From contig CM082588.2 in NCBI GenBank assembly GCA_040954595.2, forward strand, positions 7,920,844 through 7,984,843: 64,000 bases of DNA, given 5' to 3'. Shown piece by piece: positions 1,223-56,319 of this stretch. Under the pieces are notes generated by a model. The model searched no databases and was not told the DNA's origin. It was given only the letters and a program-made list of their open reading frames with translations. Positions within the stretch are counted from its first letter, which is position 1, and the number at the start of each line of letters is the position of its first letter. The DNA comes from Balanoglossus misakiensis (taxonomy: Eukaryota > Animalia > Hemichordata). A program made the position numbers and the translations under genes.

Positions 1223-4065
1223 ATACTTCTGCAGGGTTTGAGTGGCTTAAAGACTATCTCAAAGAATTGTACAGCCATGACTTTGACAAGTTCCAACCTC
1301 TGCCATGGAATGAAAACTTCTCACTCCATTTATCTGATGTCTATACCCGACTGAAGATGGGAGAGGTTAATGAAAGGGGTAAGATCATTAAGGACAATGA
1401 AGAAAATGACACTGTAGTTCATGAGAGTGCAATATTTGAAGCAGATCGAAATGGAGTGAGACCACGTAGAATAAGAATTGAAGGACCTCCAGCTATTGGC
1501 AAGTCAATGTTTAGTAGAAAGCTGGCCTACAACTGGGCTTGTGGAAAATTAGAGCAATTTAAATTAGTCTTTCTGTTGGAAATGAGATATATGAGTAAAG
1601 AATCAATCATAGAAACCATATTTGATCAATTACTTCCTGATGATGCAGAAATGTCCAGAGATGAGCTTGACAAGGTTCTGAAAAGGAATGCAGATTCTGT
1701 GCTGTTCCTCTGTGATGGTTTGGATGAAATGTGTAAGGATTTCAAGGAAAGTTCTGATATAAGTCGGATTATTGCAAAGAAATTATTGCCAAGATGTACA
1801 GTAGCTATCACAACCAGGCCCCATGAATGTGACACACAGCTGAAAAACTGTGATTCACATTATCACATAGAGGGCTTCACATGGAGTGATTGTTGGGAAT
1901 ATATCAGGAAGTACTTCAAGCATGAGTCTCAGACATGTGTGAATATGATCAAAAATTTAGAACGAAACCTCCAGTTTAAATGGTTGGATGATTTCCTTAG
2001 TAATCCCTTACATGTTTCATTTCTTTGTGTACTGTGGGAGGATCATCAAGATGGTGACCATTTCCCAACTAGAGTGACAGAGTTGTATTTTGAAGTATTG
2101 CAGTGTATTTTGAAGAGGTATTGTTCCAAGACTGGAGTCAGTCTTGATGAACAGGGAGAAGTACCCGTTGATATCATGGCTGGTGTAAATAAACTGGCTG
2201 CCATTGCTTATAATTATCTGAAACAGGGAAAAATACTCATAAATGAGGTAGATGTGATACCAACATGGCTCTTGTCACTAGGGTTACTTGTGCGTGATTG
2301 CGGTGTATCTCGCACAAAACCAAAGAAAGTTTGTTTCTTCTGTCACAAAACTTGGCTGGAATATTTTGCTGCTTTACATATTGCTGAATGTGTGAAGGAT
2401 ACTGCTTCCTTTGATGAGTTTCAATTTCTATCTGACGATATTATCCGCAGTTTCCAAGTCTTTAAATTTCTGACTGGCACTCTGAAGGAGAAAGCTGGTC
2501 CAGTATTTAAGGAAATTGGGATGGAGATGTGCAAGAATGCAGATGGTTATGACTTTGTGTTTAGAATGAAGAGCTATATAGCTTTCTTACATGAAAGTGT
2601 CAATTATCAAGCATTTTTGAAATTCATAGAACCCATCCTTTATGAATCTAAGTGTATCATTTATAATCCTTTATTTTATTTTATAGCAAGATCTATGGTT
2701 GTCAATTCTATGTCTTCACCATCACCATATTATATTCTAAGTGACGATTTGAATTTTCTTACATTGTATTATGATAGTTACTTGATGATAATCATTGATA
2801 TGCTGAAGTATGAACACTCATGTCAATGTAGACCCAAATTTAATAAAAATCTCTGGTTAGATATCAACAAAATGCAATCATCAGCGATATCCCACTTGGC
2901 AGAGGCACTGGAAAACAATCTTATTTCTCTTGAATGGCTTGTGTTGAATGTGACTTCATCCAGTGGCAAGAATCTGCTTCAGTTGGCAAAAGCTGTCAGA
3001 GAAACCAAAACGGTACAAAACATTCATATCATTGTAGATGATAGGGATAATGTTGTTGACAGCACTCCCAATGAAAAATGTAAGCAAGGCACCTCAAATA
3101 AAGAAACATACTTGACATCACATACTCTAAGAAATCTTATCGATAATGCTGTGAAAAATAAGCATATTGATTGTTTTTCATTGCATACAGTTGACCTGTC
3201 TGACCATCAACGGGAGCATATTGATAACATTCTTCCATATAAGTCATTGAAACAGGCCAGGCACTTTCAAAATATTGTGGAAACCGAAACAGGTTTAAAT
3301 AGTGCATTATTGAAAGTTGCTGATATGCTTGAACACTGTCAATCTACCAATGTTTGTCATTTTGTACTTTTTGATGGTGTCAGATATTCTGCCATTGAGG
3401 GCAGTACTGCAAGAGCTTTGTTAACAGCTGTTCAAAATATCAGCAAATCAATTAAATCTCTTGGCTTGTCAGTCACATCAGAATATGTAAAGATACCTTA
3501 TGTAGTTCCATCTGGATCATTGCCAATATCTGATGTTGTGAATAAGATTTTACATATTTTGATGTCTAACACCACATTAGAGGATCTTAAGTTATTTATA
3601 GAGAATGAAAATGTTGATGCTGTATCGAAGTTTATTCAATGTAATAAGTATGTCAAGTCACTGTCCTTTGCTCTGTATCAGTCCAGAATGAGCATAGACC
3701 ATTTATGTTCAGCTCTCTGTGCTGCTTTGAGTTCCAATACAACTCTGGAAAGCTTTGCGCTGGAGTTTTGTTATGAGTTTGTTAGAGTTTATAGTAACCA
3801 TGAACTTTCCACTGAGTATAAGTATCTTAGTCAATTGATTTTACCAACACATAGTCGATTGTGTGGTGGAAAAACTGCATTGAAGACAATTTCATTTACT
3901 TTTCCATCATTAAGTCCAAAACGCAGGGATGATATTGTCAATGTCATGACCGAGTATTTTAAAGGAAATGTTTCAGGGTCATACCAATACACTGTGAAGC
4001 AGATCATGTCCATTTATATGTACCGGTATATTCACTTTCTTAACGTATCGATCAGTGAACTCTAG
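1223..4065 (+). CDS. NLR unit 1 exon 3, NACHT + winged helix + LRR-like region
   Basis: Acceptor TTTTCTTACAG|; Walker A GPPAIGKS, Walker B VLFLCDGLDE, sensor-1 ITTRP, NPL, FCHKTWLEYFAA; LRR-like segments such as SNTTLESFAL. Confidence 0.92.
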
Positions 4066-4471
4066 AGAATGCTGAATGCCACATTTGCATAAGATGCATT
4101 CTGCTATATAGGGGAAACTCCATGAAAAATTGTAAACTTTAAAATTTTTTTTACATACACTTAATTTAAGGTACAGATATAAAATATACCAGGTAACAGA
4201 CTATACTATAGATATCAATGCTTGCACAGTTAGACAAACTGTCAAGGGATTTTCAACATATTGTATCCAGATGGAAATTTAATCAAATTACTAAGGACAT
4301 AAAGTGAACAAATAAACAAAATTTGATTTGTTCACTTTATAACAGTACTGGACTCAAATATCTACCACGAAGTGTTTTTCTTGACCAGAACTATGACAAT
4401 TTCAAAAGGCTTATGAGTTCCACAGATTTACGGGTATTATTGAATATTTGCAAGTATGTTTATAAAGCTAT

Positions 4472-5750
4472 GGCTGTGAGAAGAACAGCCACTTATAGGA
4501 TGAATAATATTGTTCAACTTTGTTTGTATTTGTGTAGTCAGCATTCACTTTGTATTTGTGTGATTGTATTACTTTATTTGAGAACTGGATGTTCTCCTTG
4601 CATTTGGACCTGAGGTCTTGAAATGCAATAAATTACTTTTATTATTACTGGCTGTGAGAAGAGCAGCCACTTGCCACTCATAGAGTGTATAATATTGTTC
4701 AACTTTCTTTGTATTTGTGTAGTCAGCATTTCACTTTGTATTTGTGTGATGTATTACTTTATTTGAAAACTGGATGTTCTCCTTGCATTTGGACCTGAGG
4801 TCTTGAAATGCAATAAATTACTTTTATTATTACTGGCTGTGAGAAGAGCAGCCACTTGCCACTCATAAAGTGTATAATTTTGTTCAACTTTCTCTGTATT
4901 TGTGTAGTCAGCATTTCACTTTGTATTTGTGTGATGTATTACTTTATTTGAGAACTGGATGTTCTCCTTGCATTTGGACCTGAGGTCTTGAAATGCAATA
5001 AATTACTATTATTATTACTGGCTGTGAGAAGAGCAGCCACTTGCCACTCATAGAGTGTATAATATTGTTCAACTTTCTTTGTATTTGTGTAGTCAGCATT
5101 TCATTTTGTATTTGTGTGATGTATTACTTTATTTGAGAAGTGGATGTTCTCCTTGCATTTGGACCTGAGGTCTTGAAATGCAATAAATTACTATTATTAT
5201 TACTGGCTGTGAGAAGAGCAGCCACTTGCCACTCATAGAGTGTATAATATTGTTCAACTTTCTTTGTATTTGTGTAGTCAGCATTCACTTTGTATTTGTG
5301 TGATGTATTACTTTATTTGAGAACTGGATGTTCTCCTTGCATTTGGACCTGAGGTCTTGAAATGCAATTAATTACTATTATTATTACTGGCTGTGAGAAG
5401 AGCAGCCACTTGCCACTCATAGAGTGTATAATATTGTTCAACTTTCTTTGTATTTGTGTAGTCTGCATTCACTTTGTATTTGTGTGATGTATTACTTTAT
5501 TTGAGAACTGGATGTTCTCCTTGCATTTGGACCTGAGGTCTTCAAACGCAATAAATTACTATTATTATTACTGGCTGTGAGAAGAGCAGCCACTTGCCAC
5601 TCATAGAGTGTATAATATTGTTCAACTTTCTTTGTATTTGTGTAGTCAGCATTTCATTTTGTATTTGTACGATGTATTACTTTATTTGAGAACTGGATGT
5701 TCTCCTTGCATTTGGACCTGAGGTCTTGAAAGGCAATAAATTACTTATTA
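4472..5750 (+). repeat. ~185-bp tandem repeat in 3' flank of unit 1 (~7 copies)
   Basis: GGCTGTGAGAAG recurs at ~4472, 4650, 4835, 5020, 5204, 5389, 5573; most units contain AATAAA. Confidence 0.93.
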
Positions 5751-6313
5751 TTATGAAGGACACAATTTGTATGTAAGGAAATATGCAGAGAGTAGCAGAA
5801 TATTTATTTAAACCAAGTGACACACTTTTGTAAGACACATTCCTGTACAGATTCAATTGAGTTCTGTTTCTAACCTCTGTGCAAAAATGTCAAAATTTGC
5901 TGGAAATTGTACGAAACTTATCATGTTTGGAGATGGCACAAGAGATTATATATCTTAACTCATTGTTATACATTTGCTTATTTCTATTTATTGCTTTACT
6001 TCATTGTTTTTTTATTAAAATGTTTTTTTCTTAATTTCTATGGAACCTGTAAATGAGATTTGTTTCAGTTGGTCTTCCTTGAAATAAATATAGTCTGAGA
6101 AGAAAGCAATTGTGAAAAATCTGTTTTCTTTATTTTAATTAAAACAGAATGAATGAAGAGATTGAAAGGTTGTATTATGTAAAGCGAGGGGAAAATATTG
6201 TTAAATGTTTTCCAAAAGTAAATGACAATTTGAAATTGCAACAAACTTGTTAGTATCACTGTTTATATCTATAATAGTAAAATTTATACTTCCCCCTGAT
6301 TTACCCCCGGCAG

Positions 6314-6845
6314 TTTTGAACTGCTGAAGCGCTGTTTTAGAGCAAGACTGCTGAAGACGGAGATGGAAGTCAATTATTTCCCATACGGCGGATCCATCAC
6401 CGACTACACCTGCCATATGTTTGACACCAAATTGGGCGTGTCGGTCACCAGGGCGATGAAGTTCAAAGGTCAATACGAAACGGAGGACGCGGAGAAACTA
6501 CTGAGAAAGAAACTGCATGGTGAGAAACAAGAATTATTCAGATAGTAAGAAATGGTACGGAGTTTTTCTTTAAAAAAAACAAGCAATTATTTTACTTTTA
6601 ATACTAATCTAATTCTTCTCGTATCATTTTTAGGTATTACCATGGCAACGAGAAATTCCTTAGAAGGCTGGTCCAAGCAAATATTACATGTGTGGGCTGC
6701 GTCCACTCACATTGCGAACACTGTCGCGGACGTTTACTACAGACTGCCGAGGGATATAACCTCAAACACGGTAGTTTTAATCACAACAGCCAGCAGGCAA
6801 TCTAGTATATTCAGCAACTCGACAAACACGCGGGGAAGAGCCTAA
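6314..6845 (+). pseudogene. 5'-truncated AAC4-like gene copy (exons 6314-6519 and 6634-6845 only)
   Basis: Last two exons match complete copies; the PNAGGNS exon and the promoter are absent upstream. Confidence 0.75.
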
Positions 6846-7966: not shown

Positions 7967-9113
7967 ATGGCGACCGGTGGTGCATTTTTAACTACAGCCG
8001 AGAAGGTGAATCACGCTAGACTTTGTCGACTACTTATCGACGGTGGATCTAATGCGGTGAGATGTGTATTTGACAGCAAGATTCCACCTAATGTGCTTGC
8101 AAAAACTCTTAACAAGCATAAGAAGTCGTTAGAGAAACTACGAGTGTTGTATAAAGGACCTAAACCGGGTCCAAAGGTTATCAGTGATGGTCAGTGGGAT
8201 CTGTTATACCCAACCCAACCCAACCTTGTCAAGTCTGAAGACTTCGACATTACATTGCTCACAGTTTTATTACGCAATATCTGTGGCCTTCGAGTGACAC
8301 AGTCCTCCCCTGGTGTTGAAGCTGATGTGGCCCGAATAAAAGACTTCAGGAATAAACTTCAACACATGCCGGGCACAGCTGTCCCTGACAGCGAATTTCA
8401 ATCTTTCTGGGATGACATTAGTAAAGTATTGGTACGTCTTGGCGCTAAGCAGGGAGATATCGATCAGTTGAAGACTGCGAGTATGGACCTTGCTGAGACA
8501 GACAAATACGAACAAACTTTAAAGGACTGGCAAGAATCCGACAAAAAGTTCCTACAGCGTATAGAAGAGAAAATTGGCGATCAAACTCGTCAGCTTGGTC
8601 AGATATCAGAGACACAGAGTGACCATAGCAGTACTTTGGCTGATATCGAACAGAACCAACGGGAGAACCAACAAGAAACAACTCAACATCTTGGTCAGAT
8701 ATCAGAGACACAGAGTGACCATAGCAGTACTTTGGCTGATATCGAACAGAACCAACGGGAGAACCAACAAGAAACGACTCAACATCTGGGTCAGATATCA
8801 GAGAGACAGAGTGACCATAGCAGTACTTTGGCTGATATCGAACAGAAACAACGGGAGAACCAACAAGAAACGACTCAACATCTTGGTCAGATATCAGAGA
8901 CACAGAGTGGCCATAGCAGTACTTTGGCTGATATCGAACAGAACCAACAAGAAACGACTCAACATCTTGGTCAGATATCAGAGACACAGAGTGGCCATAG
9001 CAGTACTTTGGCTGATATCGAACAGAACCAACAAGAAACGATTCAACATCTGGTTGACATCAAAGAAGGCCTCAAGACTTCACATACCAGTGAGTCAAGA
9101 ACATGTGTTCCAG
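7967..9113 (+). CDS. NLR unit 2 exon 1, DZIP3-type HEPN + 5 coiled-coil repeats
   Basis: ATG in AAAGATGG; NHARLCRLLIDGG, FDITLLTVLLRNICGL, RNKLQH; donor CCAG|GTAATA. Confidence 0.88.
8597..9052 (+). repeat. 96/84-bp coding VNTR, pattern LLLSS
   Basis: GQISETQ..HSSTLADIEQN(QREN)QQETTQHL units. Confidence 0.95.
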
Positions 9114-9864
9114 GTAATAATTAAGATGGAGAAGTGGAATTCATTTCTATGGCTGAAATCTACGACATTATAGCTTTTTTATAATTTGTATAATTTTTGG
9201 TCAAACTTAATTGTTCCTTTATGGTCTCATAAATTATATGTGCAGATAAGAACTCATATTCCAACTTGGTCAGATGACCCTGAGGGCCAATCTGGGTTAG
9301 CTTATTTCACATCTTAAGTCTTACATCATAATCATACATTGCATAGACCGTCATAAGCAAGTTTTTTTGCAATATATGAGAATGGGAATAATCAGGAAAT
9401 CAAGATAATTACAATCCCACTTTTCTAGGGAGTCCAAAATCATGTTAGGTGGTGACATGTTGGGTTTTTGCCGCAAGTTATCTTAAAGGGACAAAGACTC
9501 TCTCTCACTTCCCCTTTTCCATTAATAATGTTTGATACATGACACTGTTTATGTTATTCTACATGTGGATATATATAGTGAATCAACGTTCGACTGCACA
9601 CAACTTCCACCCCACTTGTATGATATGAGAGCAACAAATCTCGCCAAAATGAATATGGTCGAATGTTGATTCACTATATATTCACAAGTATATAACATAA
9701 ACAGTGTCTTGTATCAAATATAATTAATGGAAAAAGGGCAACGAGAATGAGACTTTAATGTCCTTTTAATGGCGACATCATGGTTGCTTAGTTTGAAAAA
9801 AAGATTCTGTTGCACACCACCATTGAAAATAACTTTTTCTATAAATTCTCTCCTTTATCTCAAG

Positions 9865-9996
9865 ATGCTTCCTGTGCTTGGTGCAACTGTAAGAGTGATA
9901 ATCTCAAGAAGTGTACACGCTGTTGTGCAGTGATGTATTGTGGGAAAGACTGCCAGGAACAACACTGGAGGAAAGGTCACAGAGAAGAATGCAAAG
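9865..9996 (+). CDS. NLR unit 2 exon 2, zf-MYND with all eight canonical ligands
   Basis: CAWC..CTRC..YCGKDC..HREEC; AG/GT flanks, 132 nt. Confidence 0.82.
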
Positions 9997-10622
9997 GTAC
10001 AATTGATCCTTTTCTGAACTCCACATGACCCCACGAGATTTCACGTAGCTAAGCAATTTATATGGGAGGACATTCCCCTAGCACAGGGCAAACAATTAAC
10101 ACATGTCCCGCCATATTCAATGGAACAAACAATTTCCTTTTTTGTTAAACTCTGCACCTATTCTAATTTCTTAGCTACCAACCCGTTGCTATAGTAATTA
10201 ACCAAGTCTCAGGAGATTTCTCAATGAGCAGGAAATCATCATTGTTAAAGTCTGAACCTATATTCTAGTTACATACCAAGCTAGATAGTATGAAAATATT
10301 CACAAACACCTTTTAGTACATGTAAGAACTTATAAATAAGATACTGAAAATTTCCATGTTTCACGCATAATGTTTGTATTCTCATGTGCAGAGCTGTCTG
10401 TCAAAAAGCTGGGGGTAATCACGACATGACCCTGCCTATGTGGAACACAATATGTGGTTCATATATTACGGTAGTTATGGGTCATAATACTTCTAGTACA
10501 CCATATGTAACCCCTGACTACATTATACTTAGGTACAATGATGTTTTACAGCTTGTGAAAATAATAAACTAAATCTGTAATACAAAAGTCATACTATCAA
10601 TATTATAATTGTTTTTCTACAG

Positions 10623-13459
10623 ATACTTCTGCAGAGTTTGAGTGGCTTAAAGACTATCTCAAAGAATTGTACAGCCATGACTTTGACAAGTTCCAACCGT
10701 TGCCATGGAATGAAAACTTCTCACTCCATTTATCTGATGTCTATACCCGACTGAAGATGGTAGAGGTTGATGAAAGGGGTAAGATCATTGAGGACAATAA
10801 AGCAAAGAACACTGTAGTTCATGAAAGTGCAATATTTGAAGCAGATCGAAATGGAGTGAGACCACGTAGAATAAGAATTAAAGGACCTCCAGCTATTGGC
10901 AAGTCAATGTTTAGTAGAAAGCTGGCCTACAACTGGGCTTGTGGCGAATTAGAGCAATTTAAATTAGTCTTTCTGTTGGAAATGAGATATATGAGTCAAG
11001 AATCAATCATAGAAACCATATTTGATCAATTACTTCCTGATGATGCAGAAATTTCCAGAGATGAGCTTGACAAGGTTCTGAAAAGGAATGCAGATTCTGT
11101 GCTGTTCCTCTGTGATGGTTTGGATGAAATGTGTAAGGATTTCAAGGAAAGCCTTGATATTAGTCGGATTATTGCAAAGAAATTATTGCCAAGATGTACA
11201 GTAGCTATCACAACCAGGCCCCATGAATGTGACACACAGTTGAAAAACTGTGATTCACATTATTACATACAGGGCTTCACAAAGAGTGATTGTAGGGAAT
11301 ATATCATGAAGTACTTCAAGCATGAGTCTGAGACTGGTAAGAATTTGATCGCAAATTTAGAACAAAACCTTGAGTTTGAATGGTTGGATGATTTTCTTAG
11401 TAATCCCTTACATGTTTCATTTCTTTGTGTACTGTGGGAGGATCATCAAGATGGTGACCATTTCCCAACTAGAGTGACAGAGTTGTATTTTGAAGTATTG
11501 AAGTGTATTTTGAAGAGGTATTGTTCCAAGACTGGAGTCAGTCTTGATGAACAGGGAGAAGTACCCGTTGATATCATGGCTGATGTAAATAAACTGACTG
11601 CCATTGCTTATAATTATCTGAAACAGGGCAAAATACTCATAAATGAGGTAGATGTGATGCCAACATGGCTCTTGTCACTAGGGTTACTTGTGCGTGATTG
11701 CGGTGTATCTCGCACAAAACCAAAGAAAGTTTGTTTCTTCTGTCACAAAACTTGGCTGGAATATTTTGCTGCTTTACATATTGCTGAATGTGTGAAGGAC
11801 ACTGCTTCCTTTGATGAGTTTCAATTTCTATCTGACGACATTCACCGCAATTTCCAAGTCTTTGTATTTCTGACTGGCACTCTGAAGGAGAAAGCTGGTC
11901 CAGTATTTAAGGAAATTGGGATGGAGACGTGCAAGTCTGCAGATGATGCTGGCTTGGACAGCTATATAGCTTTCTTACATGAAAGTGTCAATTATGAAGC
12001 ATTTTTGAAATTCATAAAACCCATCCTTTATCAATTTAAGTGTTTCATTTGTGATCCTTTATTTTTTAGACCAAGACCTGTGGTTGTCAATTCTTTGTCT
12101 TCACCATCACCATATTTTCTAAGTGACGATTTGGATTTTCATACATTGTATTATGAAGATAGTTACTCGATGATAATCATTGATATGCTGAAGTATAAAC
12201 ACTCACATGAAAGTATACCCAAATTTCATAACAATCTTGAGATACATATCAACAATATGCAATCATCAGAGATTTCCTATTTAGTAGAGGCACTGGAGAA
12301 GAATCTTATTTCTCTTGAATAGTTTGTGTTGAATGTGACTCCATCCAGTGACAAGAATCTTCTTCAGTTGGCAAAAGCTATCAGAGAAACCAAAGCAGTA
12401 CAAAACATTCATATCATTGTAGGTGATGATAGGGACAATGTTGTTGACAGCACTCCCAATGAAAAATGTAAGCAAGGCACCTCAATTAAAGAAACAGATT
12501 TGACATCACGCACTTTAAGAAACCTTATCGAAAATGCTGAGAAAAATGAGCATATTGATTGTTTGTCATTGCATACATTTGACCGGTCTGACCATCAACG
12601 GGAGAATATTGATAACATTGTTCCATATAATTCATTGAAACAGACCAGGCACTTTCATAATATTGTGGAAACCGAAACAGGTGTAAATAGCGTATTACTG
12701 AAAGTTGCTGATATGCTTGAACACTGTCAATCTACCAAGGTTTGTCACGTGGTACTTGATGATAGTGTCAGATATTATGCCATTGAGGGCAGTACTGCAA
12801 GAGCTTTGTCAAAAGCTGTTCAAAATATCAGCAAAACAATTAATTCTCTTAGCTTGCTTGTCACATCAGAATTTTTAGATATACCGGAATATTTTGATGT
12901 TCAATCTGAATTTTTGCCTATATGTCATGTTGTGAATGAGATTTTACACATTTTGATGTCTAACACCACATTAGAGGATCTTAAGTTATTTATAGAGAAT
13001 GAAAATGTTGATGCTGTATTGAAGTTTATTCAATGTAATAAGTATGTCAAGTCACTGTCCTTTGCTCTGTATCAGTCTACAGTGAGTATAGACCATTTAT
13101 GTTCAGCTCTCTGTGCTGCTTTGAGTTCCAATACAACTCTGGAAAGCTTTGCGCTGCATTTGTGTGATGAGTCAGATGCAATGTATAGTAACACTGAACA
13201 TTCCACTGAGCATAAGTATATAAGTAAATTCATTTTACCAACACATAGATTATTGTGTGATGGAAAAACTGCATTGAAGACGATTTCATTTACTTTTCAA
13301 TCATCAAGTCCAGAACGCAGGGATGATATTGTCAATGTCATGACCGAGCATTTTAAAGGAAATGTTTCAGGGTCATACAAATACACTGTGAAGAGGCTGA
13401 TCAGGTGGGATCTTCAATGGTATATTCACGTTCTGGAAGTATCCATCAGTGGGCCCTAG
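10623..13459 (+). pseudogene. NLR unit 2 exon 3 (NACHT + LRR-like) interrupted by in-frame TAG at 12320-12322
   Basis: Paralogs have TGG (LEW) at this codon; frame stays open downstream to 13459. Confidence 0.85.
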
Positions 13460-16005: not shown

Positions 16006-16404
16006 CAAACACTCTGTAATCATGTGCAATATATTGAGGAATCGTAGTACAGGCAGCTGATCACCGCTAAAAGCATGTAGATTGTATTTGGTGCATTTCC
16101 CAGTTAAGCTGATGTATTGCTAAACATATGTAGAAGAAATTTACGGCCCGGGTAACGATGACAACTGCCGCTAGACGAACGAGCCAACACCGGAAGACGC
16201 ATCGACGGAGTTTTAACGGGTTCCACCCGACCCGTCCGCCGAAGACGCAGACGTGTCGTCGATGCTTTCTTCGCCGATGAACGAAACGCGACTCGCAAGA
16301 AGTTATCACACGCAAGACAACAGTCACCCCCACCACTAAACCTCTACCTTGGCGACAACTTTGCCGTCAAGCTTCACGACTTGTTCAAATTTGAGAAAGA
16401 CGTC

Positions 16405-19400: not shown

Positions 19401-19562
19401 TTACATGTGTGGGGTGCGTCCGCTCACATTGCGAACACTGTCGCGGACGTTTACTACAGACTGCCGAGGGATATAACCTCGAACACGGTAGTTTTAATCA
19501 CAACAGCCAGCAGGCAATCTAGTATATTCAGCAACTCGACAAACACCCGGGGAAGAGCCTAA
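16405..19562 (+). CDS. AAC4-like protein, spliced (exons 16405-16547, 19035-19240, 19351-19562); start codon uncertain
   Basis: Spliced product reads SPNAGGNSVESEVLS|FELLKRCFRARLLKTEMEVNYFPYGGSITDY..LGVSVTRAMK..LLRKKLQ|GITMATRN..WSKQILHVW, recognised as the AAC-rich mRNA clone AAC4 family; phases join in frame (561 nt). Confidence 0.78.
16652..18580 (+). mobile_element. Non-autonomous DINE/HINE (Helentron-associated)-like element in AAC4-like intron 1
   Basis: Absent from sister copy (60466 reads AATAATTACAGC). 5' hairpin GGGTTTCGAGACC-ctct-GGTCTCGAAACCC, ATT/CTT microsatellite, internal repeats, 3' subTIR GTCTCGAAACCC (18542-18553) and stem-loop GCTGT-tc-ACAGC. Confidence 0.8.
17300..18540. 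repeat. ~237-bp internal tandem repeats (~5 copies) of the HINE-like element
   Basis: CACCTGTGA recurs at ~17372, 17609, 17846, 18084, 18321. Confidence 0.9.
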
Positions 19563-20051
19563 TTCTTAAAACCCGGCGACGGTTGATTTCAGGGGCGATT
19601 TCAAACACTCAGTATGGTTGCAAATAATGAGAAAGACTTTTAATCAGACTCGTAATCGCACAGCGAAATTTGATAATGTTATTATAAAATATAATAGTTA
19701 TATTATATCTGTACACGTACGTAAGGACGAAATTGTTTTCTGAAGACATGAATTTGAAAGACATGCGTTTGTTTTATTATATTAAATTGTATAAAACGTG
19801 GTATTATGAATCTATATTTCTAAGATCTTTTTCAACTTCTTTCATTTATTCGATTTAGGATTTTGTCGAAACCACAAGCTCAGTCCCAAATTCGAAACTC
19901 ACCTCACTACCAAAAACACGCTCAAGGCAAGCATGCACGCAAAAAGTATTGAAATTATTTGTAAGAACAAAAAAAGCATCGAAAACACATTAAGTATTGA
20001 GATTTAAAAATCACCAAGCGACTAGTGGGCTAGTCTACATTTTGACCTATC

Positions 20052-20106
20052 TGACGTCAAATGCCATGAATATATTCAGGCGAAAACGAGGTTGAGGGGA
20101 TTCCCC
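20052..20106 (+). promoter_or_regulatory. CRE and kappaB site upstream of unit 3
   Basis: TGACGTCA 20052-20059; GGGGATTCCCC 20096-20106. Confidence 0.55.
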
Positions 20107-20581
20107 TTTGATTCCCCGGTTGCGGACAACCATATATTTATTTTTGTTTATATGTACTTGCATACTAGTATTTTGCGCCAATGTCAGTGGCCTTCACATT
20201 TGAAATCGTAGCCCCCAAACATCGATTTGTTGGACTTTTCTACCCATATGATATAAAGTTACGAGAAACTTCATCTGATTGTATCATTCTAACCACTTAA
20301 CTCTAGCACTCAAAATATTTCAAGTGAGTTTCACATATACATATACATGGAACGGTAAGGCCACTGTGCCAAGCCTCTGTTAGTCGTAGTTAAGAGTTCA
20401 GACTGCGTGTTTGTGAGTTGCAGACAGAGTTGGAATTTGCGCCTGGTTTTTAGCAAATGTGAACATTTTAGTGTATCACCAACACTGTTCGAGGTAATCT
20501 TGGAAGTGGAGATCTTCATATATCTGCGCCCAAGTGCTTCCAGAACTGGAGTCAAGTTGTGTTTTGTGATATCGTACAAAG

Positions 20582-23077: not shown

Positions 23078-23209
23078 ATGCTTCCTGTGCTTGGTGCAAC
23101 TGTAAGAGTGATAATCTCAAGAAGTTTATACGCTGTTGTGCACTGATGTATTGTGGGAAAGACTGCCAGAAACAACACTGGATGAAAGGTCACAGAGAAG
23201 AATGCAAAG
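23078..23209 (+). CDS. NLR unit 3 exon 2, zf-MYND
   Basis: As unit 1; splice sites conserved. Confidence 0.8.
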
Positions 23210-39721: not shown

Positions 39722-40120
39722 CAAACACTCTGCAATCATGTGCAATATATTGAGGAATCGTAGTACGGGCAGCTGATCACCGCTAAAAGCATGTAGATTG
39801 TATTTGGTGCATTTCCCAGTTAAGCTGATGTATTGCTAAACATATGTAGAAGAAATTTACGGCCCGGGTAACGATGACAACTGCCGCTAGACGAACGAGC
39901 CAACACCGGAAGACGCATCGACGGAGTTTTACCGGGTTCCACCCGACCCGTCCGCCGAAGACGCAGACGTGTCGTCGATGCTTTCTTCGCCGATGAACGA
40001 AACGCATGTCCCAAGAAGTTATCACACGCAAGACAACAGTCGCCTCCACCACTAAACCTCTACCTTGGCGACAACTTTGCCGTCAAGCTTCACGACTTGT
40101 TCAAATTTGAGAAAGACGTC

Positions 40121-41355
40121 ATGAACAACAGTGAAGGTGGTTTGATACGCTGTGAGTTTGAAGTGAGGCGTGGATTTGATGAGATGAAGCTATCGGAGCA
40201 AGCGAAGAGAATTTACACCAGTCCAAACGCCGGTGGAAATTCAGTTGAGTCCGAAGTACTGAGGTAATATTTTTACATGCCATGGAAAAGAGAAAGAAAT
40301 CCACACACAAAAAAAATTCTAAGCAGGATGTTGAGATTCCGCTGTGAATTGCCAGTCGAAATAAATAATAACAGCTATTTTTATTTTTTTGTCTGAAAAT
40401 CTGCGTTTATTCGTTTTTTTACCTCCAAAACTTACGAATGGAGACCACAATGAACTGAGTTCGATTGGATCGTGCATCAACTAAATGTAAAGAAAACGGC
40501 GTGTTTTTAATGTTGATAAAAACGACCGTTTAGAGGGCTAAAAGTGGTCACAAAATGGCAATTTTGTCTTAAGTTGGGTCAGTAAGACTTTTTTTTCGAA
40601 TCAACACCAGTTTCAATTTAGACCAGACTTAAGCTTCCCAAACCTTCTATACAAAATTATGTTTAATCTATTTATATTTAATCTAATTTGATTTATCTAT
40701 TTCTAAGAAATGTATGTTTTCCAAGAGTAAATGATGACAACTTGAAATTGCAACAAACTTGTTAGTATCACTGTTTATATCTATAATAGTACAATTTATA
40801 TTTCCCCCTGTTTTACCCCCGACAGTTTTGAACTGCTGAAGCGCTGTTTTAGAGCAAGATTGCTGAAGACGGAGATGGAAGTCAATTATTTCCCATACGG
40901 CGGATCCATCACCGACTACACCTGCCATATGTTTGACACCAAATTGGGCGTGTCGGTCACCAGGGCGATGAAGTTCAAAGGTCAATACGAAACGGAGGAC
41001 GCGGAGAAACTACTGAGAAAGAAATTACAGGGTGAGAAACAAGAGTTATTCAGATAGTAAGAAATGGTATGGAGTTTGCCTTTTAAAAGAACAAGCAATT
41101 ATTTTACTTAATACTAATCTAATTCTTCTCGTATCATTTTTAGGTATTACCACGGCAACGAGAAATTCCTTAGAAGGCTGGTCCAAGCAAATATTACATG
41201 TGTGGGCTGCCTCCACTCACATTGCGAACACTGTCGCGGATGTTTACTACAGACTGTCGAGGGATATAACCTCAAACACGGTAGTTTTAATCACAACAGC
41301 CAGCAGACGATCTAGTATATTCAGCAACTCGACAAACACCCGGGGAAGAGCCTAA
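40121..41355 (+). CDS. AAC4-like protein, spliced (40121-40263, 40826-41031, 41144-41355); start uncertain
   Basis: Same exons, splice sites and frame as the 16405 copy, without the intronic insertion. Confidence 0.78.
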
Positions 41356-42660: not shown

Positions 42661-43897
42661 ATGGCGACCGGTGGTGCATTTTTAACTACAGCCGAGAAGG
42701 TGAATCACGCTAGACTTTGTCGACTACTTATCGACGGCGGATCTAAAGCGGTGAGATGTGTATTTGACAACAAGATTCCACCTAATGTGCTTGCAAAAAC
42801 TCTTAACAAGCATAAGAAGTCGTTAGAGAAACTACGAGTGTTGTATAAAGGACCTAATCCGGGTCCAAAGGTTATCAGTGATGGTCAGTGGGATCTGTTA
42901 TACCCAACCCAACCCAACCTTGTCAAGTCTGAAGACTTCGACATTACATTGCTCACAGTTTTATTACGCAATATCTGTGGCCTTCGAGTGACACAGTCCT
43001 CCCCTGGTGATCTCCGTGTTGAAGCTGATGTGGCCCGAATAAAAGACTTCAGGAATAAACTTCAACACATGCCGGGCACAGCTGTCCCTGACAGCGAATT
43101 TCAATCTTTCTGGGATGACATTAGTAAAGTATTGGTACGTCTTGGCGCTAAGCAGGGAGATATCGATCAGTTGAAGACTGCGAGTATGGACCTTGCTGAG
43201 ACAGACAAATACGAACAAACTTTAAAGCACTGGGTGCTGGAAGAGAAAGTTGATAAGATATCAGAGACACAGAGTGGCCATAGCAGTACTTTGGCTGATA
43301 TCGAACAGAACCAACGGGAGAACCAACAAGAAACGACTCAACATCTTGATAAGATATCAGAGACACAGAGTGGCCATAGCAGTACTTTGGCTGATATCGA
43401 ACAGAATCAACGGGAGAACCAACAAGAAACGACTCAACATCTTGGTCAGATATCAGAGAGACAGAGTGGCCATAGCAGTACTTTGGCTGATATCGAACAG
43501 AACCAACGGGAGAACCAACAAGAAACGACTCAACATCTTGATCAGATATCAGAGACACAGAGTGGCCATAGCAGTACTTTGGCTGATATTGAACAGAACC
43601 ATCGGGAGAACCAACATGAAACGACTCAACATCTTGGTCAGATATCAGAGACACAGAGTGGCCATAGCAGTACTTTGGCTGATATCGAACAGAACCAACA
43701 AGAAACGACTCAACATCTTGGTCAGATATCAGAGACACAGAGTGGCCATAGCAGTACTTTGGCTGATATGCAACAGAATCAACGGGAGAACCAACAAGAA
43801 ACGACTCAACATCTTGGTCAGATATCAGAGACACTGGTTAACATCAAAGAAGGCCTCAAGACTTCACATACCAGTGAGTCAAGAACATGTGTTCCAG
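42661..43897 (+). CDS. NLR unit 5 exon 1, HEPN + 6 coiled-coil repeats
   Basis: RNKLQH motif; donor CCAG|GTAATA. Confidence 0.9.
43252..43815 (+). repeat. 96/84-bp coding VNTR, pattern LLLLSL
   Basis: Counted from translation. Confidence 0.95.
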
Positions 43898-44036
43898 GTA
43901 ATATTTAAGATGGAGAAGTGGAATTCATTTCTTTGGCTGAAATCTACAATCATGGTTGCTTATTTTGAAAAAAAGATTCTGTTGTACACCACCATTAAAA
44001 ATAACTTTTTCTATAAATTCTCTCCTTTATCTCAAG

Positions 44037-44168
44037 ATGCTTCCTGTGCTTGGTGCAACTGTAAGAGTGATAATCTCAAGAAGTTTATACGCTGTTGTGC
44101 AGTGATGTATTGTGGGAAAGATTGCCAGAAACAACACTGGATGAAAGGTCACAGAGAAGAATGCAAAG
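44037..44168 (+). CDS. NLR unit 5 exon 2, zf-MYND
   Basis: As unit 1; preceded by the short (~140 nt) intron form. Confidence 0.8.
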
Positions 44169-44804: not shown

Positions 44805-47638
44805 ATACTTCTGCAGGGTTTGAGTGGCTTAAAGACTATCTCAAAGGATTGTACAGCCATGACTTTGACAAGTTCCAACCGTTACCATGGAATGAAAACT
44901 TCTCGCTTCATTTATCTGATGTGTATACCCGACTGAAGATGGTAGAGGTTGATGAAAGGGGTAAGATCATTGAGGACAATGAAGAAAATGACACTGTTGT
45001 TCATGAAAGTGCAATATTTGAAGCAGATCGAAATGGAGTGAGACCACGTAGAATAAGAATTGAAGGACCTCCAGCTATTGGCAAGTCAATGTTTTCACGA
45101 AAGCTGGCCTACAACTGGGCTTGTGGCAAATTAGAGCAATTTAAATTGGTCTTTCTGTTGGAAATGAGATATATGAGTCAAGAATCAATCAGAGAAACCA
45201 TATTTGATCAATTACTTCCTGATGATGCAGAAATTTCCAGAGATGAGCTTGACAAGGTTCTGAAAAGGAATGCAGATTCTGTGCTGTTCCTCTGTGATGG
45301 TTTGGATGAAATGTGTAAGGATTTCAAGGAAAGTTCCGATATTAGTCAGATTATTGCAAAGAAATTATTGCCAAGATGTACAGTAGCTATCACAACCAGG
45401 CCCCATGAATGTGACACACAGCTGAAAAACTGTGATTCACATTATCACATACAGGGCTTCACATGGAGTGATTGTTGGGAATATATCAGGAAGTATTTCA
45501 AGAATAAGTGTGAGACTGGTGAAAATTTGATCTCAAATTTAGAACAAAACCTCCAGTTTGCATGGTTGGATGATTTCCTTAGTAATCCCTTACATGTTTC
45601 ATTTCTTTGTGTACTGTGGGAGGATCATCAAGATGGTGACCATTTCCCAACTAGAGTGACAGAGTTGTATTTTGAAGTATTGCAGTGTATTTTGAAGAGG
45701 TATTGTTGCAAGACTGGAGTCAGTCTTGATGAACAAGGAGAAGTACCCGATGATATCATGGCTGATGTAAATAAACTGGCTGCCATTGCTTATAATTATC
45801 TGAAACAGGGAAAAATACTCATAAATGAGGTAGATGTGATGCCAACATGGCTCTTGTCACTAGGGTTACTTGTGCGTGATTGCGGTGTATCTCGCACAAA
45901 ACCAAAGAAAGTTTGTTTCTTCTGTCACAAAACTTGGCTGGAATATTTTGCTGCTTTACATATTGCTGAATGTGTGAAGGATACTGCTTCCTTTGATGAG
46001 TTTCAATTTTTATCTGACGACATTGACCGCAATTTCTTGGTATTTCTGACTGGCACTCTGAAGGAGAAAGCTGGTCCAGTATTTAAGGGGATTGGGATGG
46101 AGACGTGCAAGTCTGTAGGTGATGCTGACTTAACAGGCAAAATGTACCGCTATATAGCTTTCTTACATGAAAGTGTCAATTATCAAGCATTTTTCAAATT
46201 CATAGAACCCATCCTTTATGAATTTACGCGTTTCCTTAGTACTCCTTTCTATTTAATTGCAAGAACTTCTACGGTTGTCAATTCTTTGCCTTCACCATCA
46301 CCATTTATTCTAAGTGACGATTTGAATTTTCGTACATTGTATTATAAAGATAGTTACTTGATGATAATCATTGATATGCTGAAGTATAAACACTCAGGTG
46401 AAAGTAGAACCAAATTTGGTAAAATTCTTGATATAGATATAAACCAAATGCAATCATCAGAGATTTCCTATTTGGCAGAGGCACTGGAGAAGAATCTCAT
46501 TTGTCTTGAATGGCTTGTGTTGAATGTGGCTCCATCCAGTGACAAGAATCTGCTTCAGTTGGCAAAAGCTATCAGAGAAACCAAAGCGGTACAAAACATT
46601 CATATCCTTGTAGATGATGATGTTGTTGACAGCATTCCCAATGAAAAATGTAAGCAAGGCACCTCAAATAAAGAAACAGATTTGACATCACGCACTTTAA
46701 GAAACCTTATCGAAAATGCTGTGAAAAATAATCATATTGATTGTTTGTCATTGCATACAATTGACCTACATGTATCTGACCATTCACGGGAGAATATTGA
46801 TAACATTGTTCCATATAAGTCATTGAAACAGGCCAGGCACTTTCATAATGTTGTGGAAACCGAAACAAGTTTAAATAGCGTATTATTGAAAGTTGCTGAT
46901 ATGCTTGAACACTGTCAATCTACCAAGGTTTGTCATGTGATACTTGTTGATAGTGTCACATATTCTGCCATTGAGGGCAGTACTGCAAGAGCTTTGTTAA
47001 AAGCTGTTCAAAATATCAGCAAAACAATTACATCTCTTTGCTTGTTTGTCGCAATCGAAAATGTAAAGATACCTTGTGTAGTTCCATCTGGATCATTGCC
47101 AATATCTCATGTTGTGAATGAGATTGTAAACATTTTGATATCTAACACCACATTAGAGGATCTTATGTTATTTATAGAGAATGACAATGTTGATGCTGTA
47201 TCGAAGTTTATTCAATGTAATAAGTATGTCAAGTCACTGTCCTTTGCTCTGTATCAGTCCAGAATGAGCATAGACCATTTATATTCAGCTCTCTGTGCTG
47301 CTTTGAGTTCCAATACAACTCTGGAAAGCTTTGCGCTGCATTTTTGTGAGATTTGTATGCCATCTGTCAACCCTGAACTTTCCACTGAGCATAAGTATAT
47401 TAGTCAATTCATATTACCAACACATAGGTTATTGTGTGGTGGAATAACCGCATTGAAGACGATCTCATTTACTTTTCCATCATCAAGTCCAAAAGTCACG
47501 GTTGATATTGTCAATGTCATGACCGAGTATTTTAAAGGAAATGTTTCAGGGTCATACCAATACACTGTGAAGAGGCAGATCGGGTTAGGTTATCAAATGT
47601 ATTTTCACGTTCTGAAAGTATCCATCAGTGAACCCTAG
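44805..47638 (+). CDS. NLR unit 5 exon 3, NACHT + LRR-like (spliced product ~1400 aa)
   Basis: Intact frame; NACHT motifs conserved. Confidence 0.92.
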
Positions 47639-48050: not shown

Positions 48051-48410
48051 GGCTGTGAGAAGAACAGCCACTTATAGGATGAATAATATTGTTCAACTTT
48101 CTTTGTATTTGTGTAGTCAGCATTCACTTTGTATTTGTGTGATGTATTACTTTATTTGAGAACTGGATGTTCTCCTTGCATTTGGACCTGAGGTCTTGAA
48201 ACCAGGAAATTACTATAATTATTACTGGCTGTGAGAAGAGCAGCCACTTGCCACTCATAGAGTGTATAATATTGTTCAACTTTCTTTGTATTTGTGTAGT
48301 CAGCATTCAATTTGTATTTGTGTGATGTATTAATTTATTTGAGAACTGGAAGTTCTCCTTGCATTTGGACCTGAGGTCTTCAAACGCAATAAATTACTAT
48401 TATTATTACT
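48051..48410 (+). repeat. ~185-bp 3' repeat, 2 copies
   Basis: Same unit. Confidence 0.88.
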
Positions 48411-50271: not shown

Positions 50272-50282
50272 GGGGATTCCCC
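50272..50282 (+). promoter_or_regulatory. kappaB site upstream of unit 6
   Basis: GGGGATTCCCC. Confidence 0.5.
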
Positions 50283-50743: not shown

Positions 50744-51926
50744 ATGGCGACCGGTGGTGCATTTTTAACTACAGCCGAGAAGGTGAATCACGCTAGACTT
50801 TGTCGACTACTTATCGACGGTGGATCTAAAGCGGTGAGATGTGTATTTGACAACAATATTCCACCTAATGTGCTTGCAAACACCCTTAACAAGCATAAGG
50901 TGTCGTTAGAGAAACTACGAATGTCGTATAAAGGACCTAATCCAGGTCAAAAGGTTATCAGTGATGGTCAGTGGGATCTGTTATACCCAACCCAACCCAA
51001 CCATGTCAAGTCTCAATATTTCGACATTACATTGCTCACAGTTTTATTACGGAATATCTGTGGCCTTCGACATCCAAGAGATAGAGTATGGACACATCCC
51101 TCCCCTGGTGATCTCCGTGTTGAAGCTGATGTGGCCCGAATAAGAGAGTTCAGGAATAGACTACAACACATGACGGGCACAGCTGTCCCTGACAGCCAAT
51201 TTCAATCTTTCTGGGATGACATTAGTAAAGTATTGGTACGTCTTGGCGCTAAGCAGGGAGATATCGATCAGTTGAAGACTGCGAGTATGGACCTTGCTGA
51301 GACAGACAAATACGAACAAACTTTAAAGCACTGGGAAGAATCTGACATGGTGCTGGAAAAGTTCCTACAGCGTATGGAAGAGAAAATTGGTGATCAAACT
51401 CGTCAGCTTGGTCAGATATCAGAGACACAGAGTGGCCATAGCAGTACTTTGGCTGATATCGAACAGAACCAACGGGAGAACCAACAAGAAACGACTCAAC
51501 ATCTGGGTCAGATATCAGAGACACAGAGTGGCCATAGCAGTACTTTGGCTGATATCGAACAGAACCAACGGGAGAACCAACAAGAAACGACTCAACATCT
51601 TGGTCAGATATCAGAGACACAGAGTGACCATAGCAGTACTTTGGCGGATATCGAACAGAACCAACAAGAAACGACTCAACATCTTGGTCAGATATCAGAG
51701 ACACAGAGTGACCATAGCAGTACTTTGACTGATATCGAACAGAACCAACGGGAGAACCAACAAGAAACGACTCAACATCTTGGTCAGATATCAGAGACAC
51801 AGAGTGGCCATAGCAGTACTTTGGCTGATATCGAACAGAACCAACAAGAAACGATTCAACATCTGGTTGACATCAAAGAAGGCCTCAAGACTTCACATAC
51901 CAGTGAGTCAAGAACATGTGTTCCAG
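50744..51926 (+). CDS. NLR unit 6 exon 1, HEPN + 5 coiled-coil repeats
   Basis: RNRLQH motif; donor CCAG|GTAATA. Confidence 0.9.
51410..51865 (+). repeat. 96/84-bp coding VNTR, pattern LLSLS
   Basis: Counted from translation. Confidence 0.95.
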
Positions 51927-52704: not shown

Positions 52705-52836
52705 ATACTTCCTGTGCTTGGTGCAACTGTAAGAGTGATAATCTCAAGAAGTTTATACGCTGTTGTGCAGTGATGTATTGTGGGAAAGACTGTCAGAAAC
52801 AACACTGGATGAAAGGTCACAGAGAAGAATGCAAAG
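52705..52836 (+). CDS. NLR unit 6 exon 2, zf-MYND
   Basis: As unit 1. Confidence 0.8.
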
Positions 52837-53485: not shown

Positions 53486-56319
53486 ATACTTCTGCAGGGT
53501 TTGAGTGGCTTAAAGACTATCTCAAAGAATTGTACAGCCATGACTTTGACAAGTTCCAACCGTTGCCATGGAATGAAAACTTCTCACTCCATTTATCTGA
53601 TGTGTATACCCGACTGAAGATGGTAGAGGTTTATGAAAGGGGTAAGATCATTGATGACAATGAAGAAAATGACACTGTTGTTCATGAGAGTGCAATATTT
53701 GAAGCAGATAGAAAAGGAGTGAGACCATGTAGAATAAGAATTGAAGGACCTCCAGCTATTGGCAAGTCAATGTTTAGTAGAAAACTGGCCTACAACTGGG
53801 CTTGTGGAAAATTAGAGCAATTTAAATTAGTCTTTCTGTTGGAAATGAGATATATGAGTAAAGAATCAATCATAGAAACCATATTTGATCAATTACTTCC
53901 TGATGATGCAGAAATTTCCAGAGATGAGCTTGACAAGGTTCTGAAAAGGAATGCAGATTCTGTGCTGTTCCTCTGTGATGGTTTGGATGAAATGTGTAAG
54001 GATTTCAAGGAAAGTTCCAATATAAGTCAGATTATTGCAAAGAAATTATTGCCAAGATGTACAGTAGCTATCACAACCAGGCCCCATGAATGTGACACAC
54101 AGCTGAAAAACTGTGATTCACATTATCACATACAGGGCTTCACAATGAGTGATTGTGTGGAATATATCAGGAAGTACTTCAAGCATGAGTCTGAGACTGG
54201 TATAAAATTAATCCGAAATTTAGTACAAAATCTCCGGTTTAAATGGATGGATGCTTTCCTTAGTAATCCCTTACATGTTTCATTTCTTTGTGTACTGTGG
54301 GAGGATCATCAAGATGGTGACCATTTCCCAACTAGAGTGACAGAGTTGTATTTTGAAGTATTGCAGTGTATTTTGAAGAGGTATTGTTCCAAGACTGGAG
54401 TCAGTCTTGATGAACAGGGAGAAGTACCCATTGATATCATGGCTGATGTAAATAAACTGGCTGCCATTGCTTATAATTATCTGAAACAGGGAAAAATACT
54501 CATAAATGAGGTAGATGTGATGCCAACATGGCTCTTGTCACTAGGGTTACTTGTGCGTGATTGCGGTGTATCTCGCACAAAACCAAAGAAAGTTTGTTTC
54601 TTCTGTCACAAAACTTGGCTGGAATATTTTGCTGCTTTACATATTGCTGAATGTGTGAAGGATACTGCTTCCTTTGATGAGTTTCAATTTCTATCTGACG
54701 ACATTGACCGCAATTTCCAAGTCTTTGTATTTCTGACTGGGACTCTGAAGGAGACAGCTGGTCCAGTATTTAAGGAAATTGGGATGCAGACGTGCAAGTC
54801 TGCAGATGATGCTAACTTAATAGGCAAAATGAACCGCTATATAGATTTCTTACTTCAAAGTGTCAATTATCATGCATTTTTGAAATTCATAGAACCCATC
54901 CTTTATCAATTAACGCGTTTCATTTGTAATACTTTATTTTATCTTAGAATAAGACCTTCTAGGGTTGTCAATTCTTTGTCTTCACCATCACCATCACCAT
55001 ATATTCTAAGTGACGATGTGAATTTTCATACATTGTGTTATGGAGATAGGTACTTGATGATAATCATTGATATGCTGAAGTATAAACACTCACATGAAAG
55101 TAGACCTAAATGTGATAACAATCTCCAGTTAGATATAAACAAAATGAAATCATCACAGATTTCCTATTTGGCAGAGGCACTGGAGAAGAATCTTATTTCT
55201 CTTGAATGGCTTGTGTTGTATGTGACTCTATCCAGTGGCAAGGATCTGCTTCAGTTGGCAAAAGCTATCAGAGAAACCAATGCGGTACAAAACATTCATA
55301 TCGTTGTAAGTGATGATAGGGATAATGTTGTTGACAGCACTCCCAATGAAAAATGTAAGCAAGGCACCTCAAATAAAGAAACAGATTTGACATCACGCAC
55401 TTTAAGAAACCTTATTGAAAATGCTGTGAAAAATGAGCATATTGATTGTTTGTCATTGCTTACAGTTGACCTGTCTGACGATCAATGGGAGAATATTGAA
55501 AACATTGTTCCATATAAGTCATTGAAACAGGCCAGGCACTTTCATAATTTTGTGGAAACCGAAACAGGTGTAAATAGCGTATTATTGAAAGTTGCTGATA
55601 TGCTTGAACACTGTCAATCTACCAAGGTTTGTCATTTTGTACTTTTTGAGAATTTCACATATTCTGTCATTGAGGGCAGTACTGCAAGAGCTTTGTTCAA
55701 AGCTGTTCAAAATATCAGCAAAACAATTAAATCTCTTAGCTTGATTGTCACATCAGAATTTGAAAGTATACATTTATCTGATGTTGTGAATAAGATTTTA
55801 CACATTTTGATATATAACACCACATTAGAGGATCTTAAGTTATTTATAGAGAATGACAATGTTGATGCTGTATTGAAGTTTATTCAATGTAATAAGTATG
55901 TCAAGTCACTGTCCTTTGCTCTGTATCAGCCCGGAATGAGCATAGACCATTTATGTTCAGCTCTCTGTGCTGCTTTGAGTTCCAATACAACTCTGGAAAG
56001 CTTTGCGCTGGAGTTTTGTTATGAGTTTGATATAGTTCATAGTAACCCTGAACTTTCCACTGAGCATAAGTATATTAGTCAATTGATTTTACCAACACAT
56101 AGATTATTGTGTGATGGAAAAACTGCATTGAAGACGATTTTATTTACTTTTCCATCATTTAGTCCAGAACGCAGGGATGATATTGTCAATGTCATGACCG
56201 AGTATTTTAAAGGAAATGTTTCAGGGTCATACCAATACCCGTACACTGTGAAGAGGTCGATCAATTTTTTTTATGACATGTATATTCACACTCTTAAAGT
56301 ATCCATCAGTGGACCCTAG
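53486..56319 (+). CDS. NLR unit 6 exon 3, NACHT + LRR-like (spliced product ~1382 aa)
   Basis: Intact frame; NACHT motifs conserved. Confidence 0.92.

Follow-up and report, generated by a model that had tools for sequence, protein, structure and literature searches.

We analysed a 64-kb window (64,000 nucleotides) of the genome of the hemichordate Balanoglossus misakiensis (assembly GCA_040954595.2, contig CM082588.2, positions 7,920,844 to 7,984,843) and found that it contains one gene repeated head to tail on the + strand: six NACHT-leucine-rich repeat (LRR) exons are present, and a seventh copy is represented by its first exon. The predicted architecture of each gene is HEPN_DZIP3, a repeat linker, zf-MYND, NACHT and a RanGAP-like LRR, which is that of a nucleotide-binding and LRR receptor (NLR). 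Across the copies, most of the nucleotide-binding core is nearly invariant and short patches of the sensor half differ in every copy. This pattern probably reflects diversifying selection on a composite ligand-binding surface, which would switch the predicted HEPN RNase. Support for diversifying selection in the sensor half is good, though not conclusive from six copies.

Three predicted coding exons per gene join in frame across GT-AG phase-1 introns and encode, in turn, HEPN_DZIP3 with the repeats, zf-MYND (132 nt), and the NACHT-LRR region (2.84 kb). Reading frames are open over 1382-1577 aa in copies 3-6, and copy 1 is open with its 5' end beyond the window edge. Copy 2 carries a TAG stop inside the second predicted LRR strand, by which almost the whole LRR is lost, while the rest downstream stays in frame. 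Because of this stop, the downstream motifs SLLLV and RLIRWDLQWY are untranslated from this allele, and the product could be lost or could be a sensor-less, possibly unregulated form. One public contig, from a run not recorded as RNA, joins the end of the MYND exon directly to the start of the NACHT exon and gives a hint of splicing. Pfam matches were obtained for NACHT (PF05729, E = 1.1e-27), HEPN_DZIP3 (PF18738, E = 5.4e-40) and zf-MYND (E = 4e-8). Walker A and B, sensor-1, HD1 and winged helix of an animal-NLR NACHT are all present, and NLRP3 was matched with E = 1e-12 over residues 70-385; we assigned the boundaries inside NACHT from the NLRP3 alignment.

All 18 motifs quoted in an initial annotation of this DNA were recovered from the six NACHT-LRR exons. 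The near-invariant core which it described holds from Walker A to sensor-1, the nucleotide-binding domain (NBD; 96.8% amino-acid identity, 104/113 columns invariant, nucleotide p-distance 0.027 across the six copies), and for the winged helix (also 96.8%, p-distance 0.016). It does not hold for helices 1-2 of HD1 (columns 216-256; 1870-1992 in copy 1, upstream of where that annotation began), which are 75.8% identical. Elsewhere identity was 76.1% in HD2, 65.2% in the insertion that follows it, 80.1% in the LRR and 20% in the C-terminal ten residues, so that the most variable long segments, HD2 and the insertion, precede the LRR. In the codon alignment, all 17 gap runs comprise whole codons and lie after column 400.

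We compared the patches with non-coding DNA, whose mean divergence was 0.061 in intron 2 and 0.055 in the 3' flank, and whose most divergent windows of 18-30 nt reached 0.16-0.23. Nucleotide p-distances were 0.235 for the LWLDINK motif, 0.137 for SLGLSV, 0.473 for columns 864-870 and 0.502 for the C-terminal 10 codons. The suggestion that the patches diverge more than adjacent introns was therefore borne out for three of the four, which equal or surpass the most divergent non-coding window of comparable size; SLGLSV falls short of this, at about the 95th percentile of such windows (0.114 for intron 2 and 0.141 for the 3' flank). The minimum number of changes per 30-nt window rose to 44 in the sensor half, compared with 12-14 in non-coding DNA, and at least three bases were found at 57/1575 sensor sites versus 1/585 in intron 2.

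To place this variation we used an AlphaFold model of the third exon of copy 5, built from a shallow alignment of 19 sequences (mean predicted local distance difference test score, pLDDT, 75; a single-sequence fold reached only 38). It contains NACHT, HD2, the insertion, 11 strand-helix units and a final beta-hairpin, with low pLDDT at residues 473-515 and 605-624 and at the hairpin tip (925-929). The model matched NOD2 (Z 22.9, root-mean-square deviation 12.3, 648 residues aligned) and also NLRC4, and its residues 539-935 matched the LRR of Rna1p (Z 17.8, deviation 5.2, 293 aligned). Its C-terminal region is accordingly modelled as an RI/RanGAP-type LRR, an identification that comes from the predicted fold, with no Pfam LRR match. 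A homologue search with the sensor half gave no match among 7989 candidates, and the ESM Atlas returned only leads below 0.9, of LRR type.

Strand C-ends and the loops that follow them form one lateral edge in LRR geometry. Nonsynonymous changes per site were most frequent in post-strand loops (0.59) and strand C-halves (0.38), lower in pre-strand loops (0.20) and strand N-halves (0.15), and 0.154 in helices (synonymous 0.257) with 0.18 at their polar positions; the C-edge differed from polar helix positions with p = 1e-5. The hairpin reached 0.79. The corresponding synonymous values were 0.13-0.32 across the LRR classes, and the hairpin, which is saturated, had 0.69. When strand positions were sorted by hand into inward and outward, 21/34 outward positions varied versus 9/29 inward ones, and at least three residues were seen at 7 versus 0. 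In the model, LRR variation is thus biased towards outward positions near the C-ends of strands and towards the following loops, with conserved helices, much as had been proposed from the x positions of LxLxx strands; the C-terminal patch, which had been counted with them, is instead the predicted tip of a beta-hairpin.

The 35 candidate sites (posterior >0.9), placed by secondary structure only, fall in the LRR (15), the hairpin (8), HD2 or the insertion (6), HD1 (5) and before the NBD (1), and 34% of their residues are hydrophobic. Variation is therefore not confined to the single concave LRR face that had been expected: it is biased to strand C-ends and post-strand loops and extends beyond the LRR. 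The idea of a ligand-binding LRR surface agrees with the modelled solenoid and is too narrow for the variation in HD1, HD2, the insertion and the hairpin. As placed by the model, the variable residues lie at exposed sites in and after the LRR, within an otherwise conserved frame, as in highly variable NLRs.

Since the patches in HD1 and HD2 are not part of the classical sensor, the variable positions of HD1, HD2 and the LRR might instead be contacts within the protein or between copies, which serve auto-inhibition or partner choice and co-evolve or escape pathogen inhibitors, with no binding of an activating ligand. The same alternative has been offered for variable NB-ARC sites in plant highly variable NLRs (PMC8226289). 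We regard it as improbable here: the signal is strongest at the tip of the predicted hairpin and at loop positions that are free to vary in chemistry, and the domains that oligomerise in NAIP5-NLRC4 (PMC5752844), the NBD and winged helix, are the invariant ones in the array.

We next examined selection in the six paralogues of this one assembly, using codon models in our own code. Pairwise dN/dS (omega) was 0.53 in columns 1-400 (core) and 1.43 in columns 401-961 (sensor half). Plain codon models gave likelihood-ratio test statistics (LRTs) of 189.5 for M1a/M2a, 198.4 for M7/M8 and 189.8 for M8a/M8, with omega of 7-8 on 11-12% of codons. The M1a/M2a value was 126.4 when multi-nucleotide changes were included and 96.7 after gap-adjacent columns were also removed. 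Because the copies are mosaic, we simulated a worst-case null with omega ≤1, strong rate variation and a new random tree each 10 codons. The plain LRT under this null was 83-149, and 5/9 null replicates exceeded the observed 126.4. The M7/M8-type comparison that the initial annotation had proposed is thus highly significant and at the same time prone to false positives under mosaic, rate-varying nulls; we rejected all three plain tests as decisive because neutral simulations give equally large statistics. At column 97, in the Walker A +3 region (about 45095 in copy 5), the serine is invariant, with three copies using AGT for it and the other three TCN, and the plain site models scored this two-base codon switch as selected.

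A stricter model, with codon-level rate variation as well as multi-nucleotide changes, gave an LRT of 35.3 (omega 5.2 on 12% of codons), which was matched by 0/30 worst-case nulls (maximum 26.8). By region, the strict test gave 14.0 for HD2 with the insertion (0/16 nulls, maximum 11.8) and 14.1 for the LRR without the hairpin (0/13 nulls, maximum 12.5), and without copy 2 the full value was 35.0. Tree-free counts pointed the same way: alleles per nonsynonymous site were 0.306 in the sensor, compared with 0.156 in intron 2 and 0.138 in the 3' flank, and the ratio of nonsynonymous to synonymous counts (N/S) was 2.15 in HD2 (confidence interval, CI, 1.41-3.88) and 1.27 (1.03-1.63) in the whole sensor half. 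The HEPN domain, examined as a control, had an omega of 0.55 and an LRT of about 1 on its own tree. A star tree was discarded for HEPN, as it produced a false selection signal (LRT 18.6) where the fitting tree did not.

A number of results, beyond the size of the plain statistic under the null, weigh against selection on a ligand-binding surface. The strict test was not significant in the core, including the HD1 patch (LRT 4.4). The hairpin tip of copy 1 aligns better when shifted and is thus doubtfully aligned; masking it lowered the strict LRT to 21.5, a value reached by 2/30 nulls. Removal of copy 1 or copy 3 gave 19.3 and 23.6 (to be read with nulls simulated for six copies), and without the last 30 C-terminal columns the LRT was 14.0, reached by 5/30 nulls. 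Tree-free N/S in the LRR-like region alone was 1.08 (CI 0.86-1.41), and in windows picked by total change it was only 1.09-1.17 (p 0.11-0.35), with path counting set to favour synonymous steps. Aromatics make up only 10% of residues at the candidate sites. Lastly, synonymous diversity at invariant residues was 0.29 within five codons of candidate sites versus 0.12 further away, which fits either selection shielding the patches from conversion or local rate differences. The earlier claim of diversifying selection therefore survives in a qualified form: sensor dN exceeds both dS and intron divergence and the stricter test favours selection, on evidence that is moderate and weakens on masking.

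Relaxed constraint combined with patchy gene conversion could produce much of this pattern, if loops tolerated change (omega about 1), the core were homogenised, and old or imported tracts persisted in the sensor half with no positive selection. The copies are indeed mosaic: of the pairs drawn from 128 informative sites, 58% are mutually incompatible at distances above 30 nt, local clustering is limited to shorter distances, and different regions yield different trees. The raised synonymous diversity near the patches and an N/S of about 1.1 in the top windows would be expected as well, and a null that puts 81% of codons at omega 1 reproduces the plain LRT. We nevertheless consider this explanation unlikely. 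The core as a whole is not extra-homogenised, because its dS (0.061) equals the intron divergence (0.061), and polar helix positions that are exposed and alternate with the loops have remained conserved. Moreover, the null requires coding-specific rates well above those of introns, nonsynonymous diversity in the sensor being twice the intron level, and the HD2 and LRR region tests lie above all null replicates.

Region trees, tested on the five copies that have all regions, indicated how the halves have been combined. In upstream DNA and in HEPN, copy 5 groups with copy 2 (a 4+5 pairing was rejected by the approximately unbiased test, pAU 0.005 upstream and 0.0008 in HEPN). In contrast, the 3' flank pairs copy 5 with copy 4 (2+5 rejected, pAU 0.006); the 2+5 pairing was weakly rejected in HD2 (pAU 0.038), not rejected in the LRR (0.12), and the core did not resolve. 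Judged from these trees, copy 5 appears to be a recombinant, copy-2-like upstream and in HEPN and copy-4-like in the sensor and 3' flank, and the disagreement is consistent with crossing-over inside the conserved core or a short way upstream of it. Intron 1 lacks the same ~610 bp in copies 1 and 5 (Table 1), whose sensors are no closer than those of other pairs. False duplication of two haplotypes is not favoured, since these copies share the deletion yet have a sensor dN of 0.129, like other pairs.

A hairpin tip that is near-random between copies at constant length, together with the synonymous diversity beside the patches, might also suggest that a targeted germline mutator or templated cassette exchange writes the patches, in the manner of variable lymphocyte receptors (VLRs) or diversity-generating retroelements (DGRs). 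We find this very improbable. Substitutions in the patches show the same spectrum as those in non-coding DNA (chi-square p = 0.88), without any A bias, and WRC/GYW sites vary at 22/41, near the general C and G rates there (0.54 and 0.44). A search of the window for donor templates of 42 patch alleles gave longest matches of 8-13 nt, within the shuffle range, with 2/42 one base above the shuffle maximum; no match was of donor length. Within this window, the array thus lacks the marks of a VLR-, DGR- or AID-type system.

Selection on a composite binding surface suggests the following mechanism. By analogy with NAIP5 and with plant highly variable NLRs (PMC8226289), each copy would be a cytosolic sensor for a different pathogen protein, with the LRR edge, hairpin, HD1 and HD2 acting together. 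Binding would free the receptor from an ADP-held state, and oligomers, possibly mixed between copies, would be driven by the NBD and winged helix, both conserved. The oligomer might bring HEPN domains together and lead to RNA cutting, with infection stopped or the cell killed (for the HEPN motif, PMC3710099 and PMC9646362). Effector and sensor halves would be re-paired by unequal crossing-over and by short conversions running through the conserved core, while selection would keep the patches from homogenisation. We offer more tentatively, and with considerable doubt, a bolder version in which these are plant-style direct-binding NLRs in an invertebrate deuterostome: an antibody-loop-like hairpin tip would determine specificity jointly with the LRR loop edge and HD1/HD2 and would be coupled to a self-contained HEPN RNase output, giving an RNA-cutting resistosome whose sensor and effector halves are reshuffled by crossing-over in the core.

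The HEPN_DZIP3 domain carries the Rx4-6H signature in the form R-N-x3-H, intact in 6/6 copies that have the HEPN exon, and HEPN is thus a predicted RNase effector. Among relatives at E<1e-20, 15/17 are hemichordate. An effector swap in the ancestry of the array is likely: the NACHT that accompanies the closest HEPN (P0018, 52%) shares only 29% identity with that of the array, and the NACHT-LRR relatives nearest to the array, P0001 and P0002 of Ptychodera flava, carry DED. None of the 63 HEPN relatives listed has a zf-MYND annotation, and none of the 6 supplementary files of PMC13012124 has a zf-MYND entry. In mainly open-access literature we found no report of a HEPN-MYND-NACHT architecture, on which the NACHT-combination supplement of PMC9646362, not covered, may bear. 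A partner-binding or decoy role for MYND would be a guess. The MYND exon of copy 2 reads KKCTRCC, and the other five copies read KKFIRCC and so are without one cysteine that may be a zinc ligand. The linker between HEPN and MYND consists of in-frame 84/96-nt repeats, 5 to 11 units, in numbers that differ by copy.

Table 1. Coordinates of features in the 64-kb window.
Feature	Position	Strand	Remarks
NLR copy 1	3..4065	+	repeat exon end 3-312, MYND 456-587, NACHT-LRR 1223-4065; 5' end cut by window edge
NLR copy 2	7967..13459	+	exons 7967-9113, 9865-9996, 10623-13459; premature TAG 12320-12322
NLR copy 3, 1577 aa	20582..26670	+	exons 20582-22328, 23078-23209, 23816-26670
NLR copy 4, 1482 aa	29963..35788	+	exons 29963-31433, 32195-32326, 32943-35788
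NLR copy 5, 1400 aa	42661..47638	+	exons 42661-43897, 44037-44168, 44805-47638; apparent recombinant
NLR copy 6, 1382 aa	50744..56319	+	exons 50744-51926, 52705-52836, 53486-56319
NLR copy 7, first exon only (HEPN + repeats)	62470..64000	+	cut by window edge
HEPN_DZIP3 effector domain (predicted), copy 6	50744..51330	+	end approximate; R-N-x3-H motif
Repeat linker	8594-9051, 21236-22266, 30613-31331, 43256-43834, 51407-51866, 63124-64000		
Near-invariant NBD, Walker A (GPPAIGKS) to sensor-1, copy 5	45065..45403	+	96.8% aa identity
Variable HD1 helices 1-2, copy 5	45452..45574	+	candidate selected codons 45464, 45476, 45521, 45533, 45554
Near-invariant winged-helix region, copy 5	45767..46006	+	73/80 columns invariant
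Variable HD2 and low-confidence insertion before LRR, copy 5	46007..46366	+	
Irregular RI/RanGAP-type LRR solenoid (predicted), copy 5	46409..47551	+	11 predicted strand-helix units
Hypervariable tip of predicted C-terminal beta-hairpin, copy 5	47573..47602	+	0/10 columns invariant
Hairpin-tip patch, other copies	4000-4029, 13394-13423, 26605-26634, 35723-35752, 56254-56283	+	
Intron 1 with shared deletion, copies 1 and 5	313-455, 43898-44036		
Small interleaved multi-exon gene	16162-19559, 39878-41352, 59976-61447		before copies 3, 5, 7
Small interleaved gene, later exons only	6300-6842		partial, before copy 2
185-bp tandem repeat	4488-5754, 27094-27621, 36211-36555, 48067-48410, 56734-57455		2-7 copies, after 5/6 NLR stops
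237-bp satellite	17367-18469		once, in long spacer

Other features accompany the NLR genes (Table 1). A small predicted gene that lies between copies has conserved TEMEV..PYGGSITDY and GVSVTRAMKF motifs and no Pfam match; it may resemble AAC4-like nuclease-fold proteins. The blocks at 18574-22112 and 60462-64000, ~42 kb apart, are 98.3% identical, more so than the remaining unit pairs, and this points to a recent duplication of larger extent.

To our knowledge, direct binding of variable pathogen proteins by the large expanded NLR families of invertebrates, of the kind known for plant NLRs and NAIPs, is largely untested. The array offers five apparently full-frame, ~85% identical receptors that differ in few mapped patches and are suited to swap experiments, with the HEPN domain as a possible direct read-out. 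It also indicates that, where an array is mosaic in this way, routine tests of the M7/M8 type are misleading. In mainly open-access literature we found no study that mapped selection site by site in an NLR from a hemichordate or an echinoderm.

Among known systems, the array resembles the plant highly variable NLRs RPP1 and RPP13, in which variable residues are exposed in the LRR and post-LRR (Prigozhin and Krasileva 2021; PMC8226289); in both, a few further sites lie in the nucleotide-binding region and the frame is conserved. Unlike these, the array has an animal NACHT rather than NB-ARC and HEPN rather than TIR or CC, is known from sequence alone, and varies among paralogues of one assembly with a bias to strand C-ends and loops. 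Diversity-enhancing evolution has also been described for fungal NLRs (PMC13449251). Within animals, mouse NAIP5 contacts flagellin through HD1, HD2, the insertion domain and the LRR, and not through the NBD or winged helix (PMC5752844), a division mirrored by the variable and invariant domains of the array. NAIP serves as an analogy only, as sequence similarity is remote and the array has HEPN and MYND in place of BIR domains; since each copy has its own effector, no NLRC4-type partner is implied. Zebrafish NLR-B30.2 genes likewise combine tandem expansion, conversion uneven along the gene, N-terminal peptide repeats and a C-terminal module under positive selection (Howe et al. 2016; PMC4852459). 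There, however, the LRRs are little variable and selection falls on B30.2, whereas in the array the LRR, helical domains and a small hairpin vary, all within the NACHT exon.

Similar in architecture are the HEPN_DZIP3-NACHT(-LRR) receptors of bivalves, cnidarians and amphioxus (PMC9646362, PMC13012124, PMC3710099), known in tandem arrays from pearl oyster and amphioxus, which share the N-terminal DZIP3-type HEPN, an Rx4H motif with asparagine after the arginine, and expansion in tandem. The array differs from them by its inserted zf-MYND exon and 5-11-unit repeat linker, and the parts of those papers covered report no site-level selection map. The hemichordate DED-NACHT proteins P0001 and P0002 are 36-41% identical to the array, and P0002 aligns over 98% of the NACHT-LRR exon with a similar C-terminal segment; both carry DED in place of HEPN-repeat-MYND. 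The array extends to an invertebrate NLR, one with a putative RNA-cutting domain, a pattern already known from plant and mouse receptors.

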